In this document: piece by piece, positions 15,179 through 19,509 of the stretch
Numbering within the stretch: the first letter of the stretch is position 1
Layout: every line of letters begins with the position of its first letter
Virus record (IMG/VR): IMGVR_UViG_3300017917_002814
Location: 64,001-128,000 of that record
Source of the DNA: a virus
Strand: one strand, 5' to 3'
Length of the DNA: 64,000 nucleotides
The notes under the pieces: generated by a model
Seen by the model: only the letters and a program-made list of their open reading frames with translations
The model's database searches: none
Told to the model about the DNA's origin: nothing
Translations under genes and position numbers: made by a program

Positions 15179-15573
15179 GAGATTTCGGTCCTTCCGTTGC
15201 CTAAATCGTTACGATCTACTCTTCTGGGTCTCGCATCAATGGGTTGATTGGCCTCCCATTGCTCATAGTTTTCATTTAAAATATTACGACATACACTTTG
15301 AAACCATCTATCTACTATTTCGGCATCAGTATCATCTTTTTTCTGCATAAAACCGGCTTTGACCAATTTGGCCACAAACAATTCATTCCAATCTAGTTCA
15401 AAAGAACCATTGCCAACATCATCAGGATCAAGTTCCACTGCCACAACACTGACATATGGTTCTCCTGCTTCTGTAGCCAATTCCTTAGCAGTTTTGTTTT
15501 TTGCTTTAGGCTTTGGTCGTTCTTCTTTTATTTCTGGTTTCTTTTTAAGCCAATCAAACATCAGGTTCCCCAT
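15175..15573 (-). CDS. hypothetical phage protein
   Basis: 132-aa ORF (GEPYV...FELDWN...DRWF). Confidence 0.7.
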   Translation of the reverse strand: MGNLMFDWLKKKPEIKEERPKPKAKNKTAKELATEAGEPYVSVVAVELDPDDVGNGSFELDWNELFVAKLVKAGFMQKKDDTDAEIVDRWFQSVCRNILNENYEQWEANQPIDARPRRVDRNDLGNGRTEIS

Positions 15574-16409
15574 TCATTTTTAAATAACGGCACTTGCAAT
15601 CGATCGCTATATCTTAAACCATGTTTCATTGCCAGTAATGCCACTGTACGATTATTCAATGTGTAAACACTTTCTACGCCACCTACAGGCATTAGATAGA
15701 CTGATCCATGAAATCCAGCATTACGATATTGTTCCGTTGCTTTTAATGCGTCTTTGACATCTTCTTCGGTGGCTACTACAAATTTAAGATATGTATGGCC
15801 AATGGTTTGATATTGACATACAATCTCTGGACGAATAGCCTCGGCCCATGACTCACCACTGGCCGGGAGTTTTGCGCTTACACTAAATGTCACTTCTCGA
15901 GCAAAATTGGGACCAGGCATTTGCCATTGTAGCAAGTAATCTGCAAACTCATCAGATAACATTTGAGTGCCATTAGTTTCAAAAGTTATTTCTTTTAATC
16001 TTTTCATGCGAGGATGATTGAGTAAATCCTCATAACTGCGCTGCCAGCCTAGTAATGGTTCTCCACCGGTAATAACAAGATGTTCATCTTTCCACTTACC
16101 ATGTGGCAATATTTGCATAATCCGTTCTACAATCGCATCACTAGTAAGCATAGGACTTAGATCTTTGAATCTAGGATCCCATGACGCATAACTATCACAA
16201 CCTGTGCTAACTAATGGAAGTTCTTCGTACCGACTGTATTTGGCAGGATCAACATTTTCTGCTTCTATGCTTAGATGTCCGCGAGGCATACCAAACCCTG
16301 CACACTTAAAGTTGCAACCAAATGTGCGAAGAAACACACTAGGAACACCCATGTATCTACCTTCGCCTTGTATTGAATAGAAGAGTTCTGCTACTTTGAT
16401 TTTACTCAT
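15561..16409 (-). CDS. queE: 7-carboxy-7-deazaguanine synthase (radical SAM)
   Basis: ELFYSIQGEG, FLRTFGCNFKC...GCDSY, ITGGEP, ETNGT. Confidence 0.92.
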   Translation of the reverse strand: MSKIKVAELFYSIQGEGRYMGVPSVFLRTFGCNFKCAGFGMPRGHLSIEAENVDPAKYSRYEELPLVSTGCDSYASWDPRFKDLSPMLTSDAIVERIMQILPHGKWKDEHLVITGGEPLLGWQRSYEDLLNHPRMKRLKEITFETNGTQMLSDEFADYLLQWQMPGPNFAREVTFSVSAKLPASGESWAEAIRPEIVCQYQTIGHTYLKFVVATEEDVKDALKATEQYRNAGFHGSVYLMPVGGVESVYTLNNRTVALLAMKHGLRYSDRLQVPLFKNEWGT

Positions 16410-16412
16410 AAT

Positions 16413-16571
16413 TTACCAATGTCGAATAATACCTGCCACGATGAACAGGTTTGTTAGAATGTATACTAGCACAATAGCGGTACGGATACAAGCAATTTTA
16501 TTTGCTTCTGTATCTGTAGTGCCTGATTTTTCTCCTAGTGCTTTGGCCCAAAGACGCCAAACGTTACGCAA
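16413..16571 (-). CDS. small membrane protein typical of T4-like aquatic phages (not in ORF track)
   Basis: Manual translation from TTG: MRNVWRLWAKALGEKSGTTDTEANKIACIRTAIVLVYILTNLFIVAGIIRHW. Confidence 0.65.
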   Translation of the reverse strand: MRNVWRLWAKALGEKSGTTDTEANKIACIRTAIVLVYILTNLFIVAGIIRHW

Positions 16572-17067
16572 ATAAATCTTCATTCCATTCTCTATGGCCT
16601 TCGCGGAAAGCCATATTGCTTTGTGTTTCTCTAACCTCTACTCGATAGCACCAAAGACGCTCTGCTTCACTTGGACCCCACATGTCTGGTATATACACAC
16701 CATTCACATATTTGTACAACATGTCTGCTAGGCCTTCACAACCTAAGCGTGGTAGTACAACAATTTTAGCCATATTCTTTTCTTGTAGCAGTTTAAATGT
16801 TTCCATTTCTGGATCGTCTTGCGCCACAATCAAAGTATGGTCAAATTGATCTTCTAAGATCTTCTTAAGTTCTTTGAGACCGCCGTAGTCGGCGGCCCAG
16901 TTACGCACATCTAAGTGATCTGTGCCAAAATAAAACTTCATCGAAAATGAATAACCGTGAATTAGATTGCAATGGCTGTCGGCACGCCATTGACGATATG
17001 CACAAGGAAATGCGTCGTGATACTCTTTGGTACTTGTATATTTGTAAACTCTTGTTGGGTAAGACAT
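16564..17067 (-). CDS. queD: 6-carboxy-5,6,7,8-tetrahydropterin synthase
   Basis: SHCNLIHGYSF, DYGGLKELK..L...FDH, EVRET; between folE and queE. Confidence 0.88.
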   Translation of the reverse strand: MSYPTRVYKYTSTKEYHDAFPCAYRQWRADSHCNLIHGYSFSMKFYFGTDHLDVRNWAADYGGLKELKKILEDQFDHTLIVAQDDPEMETFKLLQEKNMAKIVVLPRLGCEGLADMLYKYVNGVYIPDMWGPSEAERLWCYRVEVRETQSNMAFREGHREWNEDLFA

Positions 17068-17160
17068 GTTATTCTCCTATATTAAATTTTAACATAGGCT
17101 TGCAGAATTTGTAAAGCGGGATGAATGCCAAGAAAGGCCGCTAATAGATTATTATTTATA
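17068..17160 (-). promoter_or_regulatory. TATAAATA late promoter plus structured 5' leader of queD (riboswitch-like)
   Basis: AGCGG/CCGCT stem, possible pseudoknot, and hairpin CCTATGTTAAA/TTTAATATAGG that occludes the AGGAG SD. Confidence 0.5.
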
Positions 17161-17162
17161 CT

Positions 17163-17711
17163 TTAATTTTCCCACCAAGATTCCCAAGGAAAAACCACCC
17201 AACAAGGATCTTCATTTTTGTTGATATTTTGCCCTATATAATCAACATTTTTAAACTGACTGGCTTCATTGTTTACAATTACAGCGAACCGTACATTGTT
17301 ATTATAAATTACGTTCCATGCCGGATGTTTGGGTAAACAACTGCTACGCCAGTCATTTTTGATCCATTCTAGTGTAGCACCTGAATCATTTATATCATCA
17401 ACGATTAGAATTTTTTTACGATATGCCGGATCGGTGTCAGCATCACCTGATCCACGTTGGTCCTTAGGTACATAACCAAACGCATGTTCGGCCATCCAAA
17501 GATTACTTTCACTTTCGTTACCATCGCGTAGACTTACTTTTAGTGTTTCACATGGGACATCAAAATAATGACTAATCATAGCAGCCGGAGTCAACCCACC
17601 TCGAGTAATACCTACCACATAGTCAGGACGCCAATCACTGTTAGCAATGTCTCTACATAGTCTATGCATTAAACCTTTGAATTCTTGGTCTGAGATTCTG
17701 ATTTTTTTCAT
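17163..17711 (-). CDS. type I phosphoribosyltransferase (xanthine/guanine PRT-like)
   Basis: VVGITRGGL, ILIVDDINDSGATL PRPP-binding loop, WVVFPWE. Confidence 0.88.
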   Translation of the reverse strand: MKKIRISDQEFKGLMHRLCRDIANSDWRPDYVVGITRGGLTPAAMISHYFDVPCETLKVSLRDGNESESNLWMAEHAFGYVPKDQRGSGDADTDPAYRKKILIVDDINDSGATLEWIKNDWRSSCLPKHPAWNVIYNNNVRFAVIVNNEASQFKNVDYIGQNINKNEDPCWVVFPWESWWEN

Positions 17712-18125: not shown

Positions 18126-18827
18126 TTATTCTTTCTTATCTCCAAACAATTGAAGCAGGCTCAAGAATAGATTTATAAAGTCTAAATAGAGAGTCAATGC
18201 ACCCATAACTTCAACCGCCGGTCCATCACTTTCCATCAATTGTTCTCTAATCTTTTGAGTATCATATGCTGTTAGACCTAAAAAGATAACTACAGCCGCA
18301 GCACTTATTACTGTTTGAAGCAGAGATGATCCGATAAAGATATTTACTATACTTGTAATAATAATAGCTATTAGTGCCACAAATAGATATTTCCCCAACG
18401 AGTCTAAACTTTGTTTTGTGAAATAGCCGTAAATACTCATGGTCAAAAAAAGTATCGCAGCACCAAAGAATGCACTAGCAATACTGGCACTGGTGTAAAG
18501 TACAAAGATAGTGGCAAAACTTAGTCCCATTAGTGCAGCGAAACCAAACAGACAGGCCTTGGCTACAAATTTTGAAGGGCTATTGCCGAGTACATATCCT
18601 ACACCAAATATTGCTGCCAACGGTGCAAATATTACGACCCATTTCATAATGCCAGTAAAAAAGAATGCCATAAGTGCAGCATCTGAGGCTACCAAGGCAC
18701 TCACAATCATACTTACTATAACTGCTTGTGCCATATTATTGTATACACGAATCATACCGCTGTTAATTTCAGCAGGTGTTCTATAGGGTAATGCGTAATC
18801 CATTGTAGTCTCCTTATCTAGGTGCAA
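18126..18827 (-). CDS. Bax inhibitor-1/YccA family membrane protein
   Basis: About 7 TM helices, TAYDTQKI, ALTLYLDFINLFL. Confidence 0.9.
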   Translation of the reverse strand: MHLDKETTMDYALPYRTPAEINSGMIRVYNNMAQAVIVSMIVSALVASDAALMAFFFTGIMKWVVIFAPLAAIFGVGYVLGNSPSKFVAKACLFGFAALMGLSFATIFVLYTSASIASAFFGAAILFLTMSIYGYFTKQSLDSLGKYLFVALIAIIITSIVNIFIGSSLLQTVISAAAVVIFLGLTAYDTQKIREQLMESDGPAVEVMGALTLYLDFINLFLSLLQLFGDKKE

Positions 18828-19509
18828 ACTCTTGTTGCAATTTTACGTTGTCAAAAAACTCTTTCTTGGTTGCCGGGTCAGCTTTAAACGCTCCTTTTAA
18901 CACGGTAGTCTGGGTGAGACTACTGTGTGCCATAATGCCCCTATTCTCGCAGCATCCATGTGTGGCCTGTATATAAACCGCCACATCTCTACTTCCAGTC
19001 GCAAACTCAATCTCCCTTGCAATGTCCATACAAAGCTCTTCCTGTAGTGTACCTCTCCTTGCACACCACTGAGCGATTCTTGTATACTTACTAAGGCCGA
19101 TGAGTTTGGGACCAGCAATGATGCCAATGTACGCCACGCCTGATACAGGTTGGTGATGATGACTGCAAACACTTTTAAGTTCTGAACGGACCACAAGCAT
19201 CCCTTCGTACTTACCGTCTGCATCATTCGGAAACGCAGTTGCGTTTGGTGTCGGATCATATCTACCTGCCATTAGTTCATTATAATACATTTTGGCAAGA
19301 CGCCTCGCTGTGCCAATACTATTAGGATCTGTTGCTCTATCAATCAACAATGTGTCTAGTACTTGTTCAAACGCCTCAGTGGCTTCGTCGATCAATTGAT
19401 CTTTGTCCTCATCCGTTACATAACTGCTGATGTTGTCACCGGCCCAGTATCTTTTGCCGTCGGCATGCATTTGCTCTCGAATTCTATCGCTTACTCGTGT
19501 GTATTTCAT
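18814..19509 (-). CDS. folE: GTP cyclohydrolase I
   Basis: SVCSHH, IGLSKYTRI, LQEEL, ATHGCCENRG. Confidence 0.93.
   Translation of the reverse strand: MKYTRVSDRIREQMHADGKRYWAGDNISSYVTDEDKDQLIDEATEAFEQVLDTLLIDRATDPNSIGTARRLAKMYYNELMAGRYDPTPNATAFPNDADGKYEGMLVVRSELKSVCSHHHQPVSGVAYIGIIAGPKLIGLSKYTRIAQWCARRGTLQEELCMDIAREIEFATGSRDVAVYIQATHGCCENRGIMAHSSLTQTTVLKGAFKADPATKKEFFDNVKLQQEFAPR

Follow-up and report, generated by a model that had tools for sequence, protein, structure and literature searches.

What does the 95-base gap in front of a queD-like gene do in a phage that is probably giant? The gap occupies positions 17068-17162, on the minus strand, of a 64,000-nucleotide stretch of viral DNA (positions 64,001 to 128,000 of IMG/VR virus record IMGVR_UViG_3300017917_002814; this whole stretch is called the window below), and it separates two open reading frames (ORFs) of the same strand, 17163-17711 and 16564-17067. 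An earlier reading of the letters, hereafter the original prediction, had taken it for a riboswitch-like leader of queD. With high confidence, this queD leader carries a real, conserved and covarying cis-regulatory RNA pseudoknot. As for its function, the reading favoured here is that the cis-acting H-type pseudoknot would be a translational switch of the queD-like mRNA, most likely a small-molecule riboswitch wired ON, to which a probability of roughly 0.55 is given.

In its general form the element is about 50 bases long and is made of a first helix of 5 pairs (P1) and a second one of 4-7 pairs (P2), in which the loop of P1 pairs with downstream sequence; the connecting loops are designated L1 to L3, and P3 is a hairpin further downstream. 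All sequence strings quoted in the original prediction were present on the minus strand where it had placed them. The parts of the leader are given here by their positions in the window, with columns that refer to alignment A2, a set of 112 distinct aptamer sequences.

17153-17160, minus strand: TATAAATA box, 10 bases upstream of P1, candidate promoter of a long, pseudoknot-bearing transcript
17138-17142, minus strand: 5' strand of P1, AGCGG, pairing with 17115-17119
17130-17137, minus strand: L1, CCUUUCUU, pyrimidine-rich and of variable length (A2 columns 7-15)
17125-17129, minus strand: 5' strand of P2, GGCAU, within the P1 loop (A2 columns 16-19 and 21 pair with 47-51)
17120-17124, minus strand: L2, UCAUC, the last C of which (17120) is an invariant A2 column and stands directly 5' of the P1 3' strand
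17115-17119, minus strand: 3' strand of P1, CCGCU, placed by the P1 complement and the alignment
17110-17115, minus strand: -35-like hexamer TTTACA, overlapping the end of P1 and the start of L3
17102-17114, minus strand: L3, UUACAAAUUCUGC, an A-rich part and then a near-invariant UCUGC (invariant A, U, C, G and C columns of A2)
17097-17101, minus strand: 3' strand of P2, AAGCC, ending in two C (17097-17098) with which P3 begins
17076-17098, minus strand: P3, predicted hairpin sequestering the Shine-Dalgarno sequence, 10 pairs and a 3-base loop (CCTATGTTAA/TTAATATAGG, 17089-17098 with 17076-17085)
17086-17091, minus strand: -10-like hexamer TAAAAT, with TG before it at 17093-17094, in the top of P3 (upper stem and loop)
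17074-17078, minus strand: Shine-Dalgarno sequence AGGAG, whose GG (17076-17077) pairs with CC (17097-17098) in P3
17065-17067, minus strand: ATG of the queD-like gene
16564-17067, minus strand: queD-like gene, PTPS fold, 167 amino acids (Pfam PTPS 3.5e-15; PHROG 'QueD-like' 2.3e-36)

The pseudoknot was assessed in alignment A2, to which no filter involving P2 had been applied. P1 (AGCGG/CCGCU) and P2 (GGCAU:AAGCC) together form an H-type pseudoknot and both helices covary over the 112 sequences. Taken jointly they were paired at 90.5% as compared with 74.7% in shuffles (0/500 reached 90.5%) and with 36-49% in controls in which the partners had been slid by 1-3 columns, and their joint covariation score was 0.382 against 0.129 in shuffles (0/500 reached it). 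P2 considered alone was 81% paired with changes on both sides in 5/5 pairs, its variants including GGCA:UGCC, GGCG:CGCC, GGUG:CACC, GACA:UGUC and GACGC:GUGUC. Because G.U pairs occur in P2, the structure is assigned to the queD sense strand. Covariation upstream of queD orthologs, which the original prediction had named as a check on itself, is consequently present for both helices. The same prediction had let the P1 loop pair with either GCC or TGCAAG, and of these only the GCC register (GGCAU, 17125-17129, with AAGCC, 17097-17101) held, the CUUGGCA:UGCAAG register being 55.8% paired versus 53.3% when shuffled.

The most conserved positions of A2 are unpaired ones, namely the C closing L2, three A in L3 and the UCUGC ahead of P2. 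The C at 17120 (C24 in the first row of A2) was invariant in 112/112 sequences and is preceded by a U in the window, U being the commonest base at this place over A2 with C or A in some rows. L1 has 5-9 bases and opens N-C-U, and L3 has about 13 bases. Two further pairings were tried and rejected: AUUCU of L3 with AGAAU after the Shine-Dalgarno sequence, taken from the minimum-energy fold, was 76% paired with zero both-side changes and thus did not covary, and CUGC as an alternative partner of the P1 5' strand, seen by eye, was dropped since CUGC stays constant when P1 changes.

The distribution of the element was followed from the gene and, independently of it, from the motif. When viral contigs were searched with the QueD-like protein, at least 590 of 600 candidate stretches were confirmed and the best 80, at 89-96% identity, were taken; the element lies directly before the queD start in 78 of these best 80 of at least 590 loci, the two exceptions being one locus that ends inside the element (L010) and one without upstream DNA (L033). 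The gene-blind pattern scan, with the P1 bases left free (CCCNNT), returned at least 120 matches. Among those listed, 87 were flagged with a P1 complement, one of which (L186) is a chance match by eye, leaving 86 family members; two more (L090 and L129) are members with a one-sided P1 change, and the remaining listed matches are chance matches in coding DNA. The 86 members display five P1 types, each with its exact complement: AGCGG, ACCGG, AUCGG, AGAGG and AGUGG.

Pooling the listed matches of both scans gave 160 instances with 111 distinct aptamers, and a queD-like ORF directly follows the element in 156/160 of them. In three of the others (L030, L156 and L175) one extra ORF stands between the element and queD, and L195 is the fourth instance without a queD-like ORF directly after the element. 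On the other side, a phosphoribosyltransferase-like gene is immediately upstream in just 20/143 instances, with HIT-like, FolE, QueE or other genes elsewhere. Since queD is nearly always next and the upstream gene is not conserved, the element, judged by gene order, belongs to queD as its 5' leader. The leader combines the general marks of a riboswitch, a structured and conserved 5' leader aptamer that covaries and is consistently found with one gene.

A covariance model built from the alignment gave one match in the window at 61.3 bits, a score that holds by construction because the window was in the training set, and a next best match of 11.3 bits. The model finds one copy in the 137-kb record and, in 100 further loci, one strong match in each of 74. 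For cultured phages, 50,697 phage records were searched by blastn with a 4.1-kb query and with the 79-base leader; the matches were only weak ones in coding sequence or partial ones due to chance, and no isolate carrying the motif was found at blastn sensitivity. Bacterial genome contigs were scanned with one narrow exact pattern covering the commonest variant alone, a scan that does not establish absence from bacteria, and gave one match: an 8-kb contig of a Chitinophagales metagenome-assembled genome (L202) with the motif and a queD-like start, which is probably a phage contig binned into that genome. Apart from this contig, the motif was found solely on phage contigs among the matches listed.

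How the element might control translation was considered from the sequence that joins it to the start codon. Three leader designs were distinguished, with 87 (class A, which includes the window leader), 32 (class B) and 8 (class C) distinct full-length sequences. In class A, the 3' arm of P3 (CCUAUG...CAUAGG, which is the kept part of the hairpin in this class) holds the GG of AGGAG, and P2 ends with the two bases with which P3 begins, so that the predicted overlap of the pseudoknot pairing with the Shine-Dalgarno hairpin is borne out, the P2 3' strand including 17097-17098 of P3. The Shine-Dalgarno sequence of the window (17074-17078) itself sits 19 bases 3' of P2. The six core pairs of P3 were 100% paired in 88 class A leaders and near-invariant, with 3 of them constant, 2 varying on one side and 1 changed on both. 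The P2 3' strand of class B runs on as GUCAUC, which RNAalifold pairs with GGAGAC (0/8 predicted pairs compensated), and for class C a pairing of UGUCU with AGACA is possible by eye. In all three designs the formation of P2 withdraws the anti-Shine-Dalgarno strand, which points to an ON switch. Nearest-neighbour energies, rough values in which the loop penalties of the knot are ignored, are -8.7 kcal/mol for the window P3, -2.5 for P3 without the two shared pairs and about -4.1 for P2 alone; by these P3 outweighs the knot by roughly 2 kcal/mol unless the knot is stabilised, and the closeness of the two means that a bound partner contributing a few kcal/mol would be enough to reverse the outcome.

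The leader also contains promoter-like sites, and here the original prediction, right in seeing an RNA structure, had overlooked a sigma-70-like promoter embedded in it. A promoter scan gave this site, TTTACA, an 18-base spacer and TG + TAAAAT, 10/12 matches, its activity being predicted. At least 10/12 hexamer matches are reached in 58/87 class A leaders, and 81/87 have the TG, versus 1% of shuffles. The general form in this class is a 17-18 base spacer with TG + TATAAT or TAAAAT, and the -35-like hexamer of the best-scoring site is TTTACA or TATACA in 80/87 leaders. No site reaching 10/12 was found in class B (0/32) or class C (0/8) leaders, and class B also relaxes the C of UACAAA. A transcript from the embedded promoter would start near 17078-17080, as placed from the sequence, and would contain neither P1 nor P2 nor the 5' arm of P3. 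Upstream of P1, at 3-13 bases, a TAA[AG]TA box occurs in 70/92 class A, 11/31 class B and 4/8 class C contexts, with a background of 0.6% of random 40-base windows. The T4 late promoter is TATAAATA as given in the available text of a review of T4 post-transcriptional control (PMC3014915). As a general late promoter of the present phage this octamer was rejected, since it is not enriched in the window (3 found versus 5.8 expected); the enrichment of TATAAATA-type boxes is local and position-specific, upstream of P1 only.

From these elements the following mechanism is proposed. In long transcripts, starting at or upstream of the TATAAATA box, the Shine-Dalgarno sequence would be held in P3, and a stabiliser of the knot would pull the anti-Shine-Dalgarno strand into P2, thereby freeing the Shine-Dalgarno sequence and turning translation ON. 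The least certain part is the ligand, which might be a guanine-faced compound of the GTP-to-7-deazapurine route, for example preQ0, preQ1, 7-carboxy-7-deazaguanine (CDG) or a pterin intermediate; this is a guess, made because of the association with queD and the preQ1-I-like placement of the invariant C. The sigma-70-like promoter in the window and in most class A relatives may provide a bypass through short transcripts without the knot and the inhibitory strand. Two mRNA species would be expected, a short one open to translation at all times and a long one whose translation depends on the knot, both starts being predicted.

Several observations weigh against this proposal or against parts of it. 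Regarding the pseudoknot, P2 of the window is weak and has one A.A mismatch, and the 100% pairing of P1 in A2 is partly circular because the filter required the P1 complement, the independent evidence for P1 being the five types with exact complements. An alignment-free swap test gave -5.06 kcal/mol for each loop with its own tail versus -3.67 kcal/mol for mismatched ones, with 28.5% of swaps at least as stable; the test is weaker because most P2 types have a common GGC:GCC core. The leader alone folds at -16.5 kcal/mol (z -0.83), which 36/200 shuffles equal, and the case rests on comparison since the single sequence folds no better than shuffles. The preQ1-I model RF00522 (gathering score 39 bits) had no match on the leader in 6/6 records. 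Regarding the switch, there is next to no covariation in P3 or in the class B anti-Shine-Dalgarno pairing, and consequently the ON direction is only inferred. An ON switch on a biosynthetic gene is not what simple end-product feedback would call for, and with an embedded promoter the aptamer may be missing from a large share of the queD mRNA. Finally, the enzymes are only QueD-like and QueE-like, both under the NCBIfam cut-offs, which makes the pathway product uncertain.

The shape of the element calls for a comparison with the preQ1 riboswitches. The original prediction had not recognised the leader as preQ1 class I-III, in agreement with the finding that no preQ1 or other Rfam model recognises it; the architecture is nevertheless much closer to preQ1-I than that prediction allowed. 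Rfam searches of 2.5 kb and of 121 bases at E-values up to 10 gave no family: the matches to Flavi_NKV_xrRNA, ROSE_2, DdR6, Mu-gpT-DE and, on the Shine-Dalgarno region, a fragment of preQ1-II are all ascribed to chance. The sole match of the L052 leader was emrB-Lactobacillus at 14.3 bits on the opposite strand. RF00522 had no match at E-values up to 10 in the 121-base slice or in the L052 slice. In the phage's own record it had 6 weak matches of at most 15 bits, none on the leader, and in 5 records with variant leaders 2 matches of 9-10 bits, both outside the leader. For preQ1-II (RF01054) there was only one alignment, of 14.6 bits against a cut-off of 47, lying over the Shine-Dalgarno region and leaving out 69 positions of the model, and for preQ1-III (RF02680) no match in 2.5 kb or 121 bases at E-values up to 10.

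In the available text on preQ1-I riboswitches, the class is an H-type knot with a cytosine specificity base just before the P1 3' strand in a UC/AC motif, a uridine or UU motif in L1 and a short A-rich L3 that leads straight into P2 (PMC11625349), and its translational members bury Shine-Dalgarno bases in P2 and are turned off on binding (PMC11625349, PMC10622847). Measured against this description, the phage element is likewise a small H-type pseudoknot in the leader of a queuosine/7-deazaguanine pathway gene, with a 5-pair P1 ending in G-C pairs, a P2 formed by the P1 loop and a 3' tail, an A-rich L3 and, at the place of the cytosine specificity base, the invariant C17120, which by its position may have a role in binding. 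It differs in its L1 of 5-9 pyrimidine-rich bases without the UU motif, in its L3 of about 13 bases with the invariant UCUGC between the A-rich part and P2, and in its P2 (4-7 pairs), which is without the Shine-Dalgarno sequence and competes with the anti-Shine-Dalgarno strand, so that the outcome would be ON and not OFF. By sequence comparison, the leader element resembles the preQ1-I aptamer and yet is no preQ1-I member, failing on RF00522, L1, L3 and Shine-Dalgarno placement.

Phage T4 offers two other points of comparison, both from the available text of the review cited above (PMC3014915). Gene 32 of T4 has an H-type pseudoknot 5' of the gene and is under autogenous translational control by gp32. 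What the gene 32 leaders of T4, T2 and RB69 have in common with the queD leader is a 5'-end H-type pseudoknot that governs, or in the queD case would govern, the initiation of translation downstream; the gene 32 knot, however, sits about 67 bases 5' of the start codon and is the nucleation site from which protein binds cooperatively across an unstructured A+U-rich region, whereas the phage queD knot abuts and overlaps the Shine-Dalgarno hairpin, and the sequences are unrelated. In T4 e, soc, 49 and I-TevI, the ribosome-binding site is hidden in long transcripts and a promoter within the structure yields short translatable ones (PMC3014915). The -10-like box of the queD leader similarly lies in the top of the inhibitory hairpin P3. 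In this T4 group, as far as the same text goes, the internal promoter is of the late TATAAATA type and the long transcripts are early, while in the queD leader the internal site is sigma-70-like with the TATAAATA-like box upstream, and a covarying pseudoknot able to undo the hairpin is added.

These comparisons bear on the alternatives to a small-molecule switch. The gene 32 precedent would suit a translational operator in which a phage protein, perhaps the QueD-like enzyme or another protein of the pathway, binds the knot; a pathway protein was also allowed by the original prediction, and the conserved unpaired bases of L2 and L3 would suit a protein equally. The placement of the invariant C and the A-rich L3 rather mirror a small-molecule aptamer, no RNA-binding domain was found in the neighbouring proteins scanned and the upstream neighbour varies widely between genomes, and an operator of this kind is considered unlikely. 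A knot that always forms, without any ligand, is held less probable again. Such a knot would stabilise the 5' end, enhance translation or respond as a fold to temperature or ions, with timing by promoter choice only, as the T4 e, soc, 49 and I-TevI precedent, its promoter-like counterpart within the queD leader and an upstream box that would place P1 at the extreme 5' end of the long transcript could all suggest; against it, a plain inhibitory hairpin needs no covarying pseudoknot overlapping it in three platform designs, and the knot is retained in classes B and C, where the internal promoter is missing (0/32 and 0/8 reach 10/12).

A genuine but diverged member of preQ1-I, with preQ1 or preQ0 as ligand and classical OFF feedback on queD, would account for the queuosine-type gene, the H-type knot, the A-rich L3 and the C before the P1 3' strand, mostly after U as in type I as far as the text on that class describes it. 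It is very unlikely given the missing RF00522 match on the leader in 6/6 records and two short slices (E-value up to 10), the 13-base L3 with its added invariant UCUGC, the L1 without a UU motif, and a Shine-Dalgarno sequence about 20 bases downstream of P2, where P2 competes with the hiding strand, the opposite of burial. The least credible alternative has no functional RNA structure at all, only DNA: a sigma-70-type promoter (TTTACA/18/TG + TAAAAT, 10/12) and a palindromic operator (CCTATG...CATAGG). The class A promoter statistics (58/87 and 81/87 versus 1% of shuffles) and the near-invariant instead of covarying arms of P3 agree with it, but it fails to explain the compensatory changes of P1 and P2 and the strand-specific G.U pairs, and P1, P2, L2 and L3 are conserved in classes B and C, which lack the promoter. 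In class A the promoter may well exist as an additional feature, but by itself it does not account for the leader.

The translational switch wired ON, most likely a small-molecule riboswitch, remains the favoured reading, and a more specific form of it can be put forward only tentatively. In this form, the riboswitch class would be phage-borne and new, descended from or convergent with preQ1-I, and its ligand a guanine-faced intermediate of the phage's own GTP-to-7-deazapurine route. Binding would turn queD translation ON, as feed-forward or salvage sensing, in no other transcripts than the long, late or read-through ones, while an early-type promoter within the expression platform would yield short transcripts that ignore the switch. 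The motif looks like an uncatalogued riboswitch whose shape is related to preQ1 class I; a literature search, with subscription papers and supplements outside its reach, found no description of it, and no riboswitch is functionally characterised in T4-type phages according to the available text of the T4 review (PMC3014915). Should the motif indeed be a widespread, single-copy, covarying aptamer before a DNA-base-modification pathway gene of giant uncultured phages, three things would follow: the timing or metering of 7-deazapurine synthesis by phages could be approached through it, the preQ1-I fold, known for burying the Shine-Dalgarno sequence, would gain a relative wired ON, and ligand discovery would have a compact natural part of about 50 bases to work with. 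Two mRNA species differing in translational behaviour are moreover predicted from the embedded promoter and, if the new-class form is true, the leader would display a two-tier control made of T4-style promoter choice and metabolite sensing.

The source record has 137,412 bases and was rated 38% complete by CheckV, from which the phage is probably a giant one. All genes near the leader are on the minus strand. Their order starts with a DNA polymerase, a sugar epimerase and an aminotransferase-like gene, followed by FolE (18814-19509), a Bax1-I membrane protein, two small ORFs and the phosphoribosyltransferase-like gene (17163-17711), after which comes the 95-base gap; 3' of the gap are the queD-like gene, a 56-amino-acid ORF, a queE-like radical-SAM gene (15561-16409) and a 5'-3' exonuclease. 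No family match to QueC (PF06508) or TGT/DpdA (PF01702) was found in the 137-kb record, 38% complete, and these genes may lie elsewhere because the record is incomplete.

The queD-like protein scores 34.7 bits with NCBIfam QueD, under the cut-off of 89.25, and its identity of 89-96% over the 80 best-matching phage loci is observed despite this score far under the cut-off; the length of its N-terminus differs between loci. The phosphoribosyltransferase-like gene on the other side of the gap (17163-17711, minus strand) is of the purine type and adjoins the cluster of FolE, QueD-like and QueE-like genes. It is nearest to xanthine/hypoxanthine enzymes, under the cut-offs, the best NCBIfam match being xanthine phosphoribosyltransferase at 37 bits versus a cut-off of 138, and its presence beside this cluster hints at a base-to-nucleotide route for a 7-deazapurine. 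The 56-amino-acid ORF (16413-16583, minus strand), between the queD-like and queE-like genes, has a hydrophobic tail and matches no family; by tblastn it is found downstream of the motif in 41/160 neighbourhoods.

Among the relatives, the neighbourhood is shuffled while the leader and queD stay together as a pair. The upstream gene in many of them (for example L003, L034, L049 and L086) ends with a HIT-hydrolase-like stretch, YPHVHLIPR, as seen by eye. The extra ORFs between element and queD in L030, L156 and L175 are a methyltransferase-like one, a cupin-like one and one without an assigned family. In another locus, L091, a second and decayed copy of the motif (L091:7-54, 27.4 bits) precedes an inserted methyltransferase-like ORF (L091:68-997), and both sit just upstream of the intact motif and queD.

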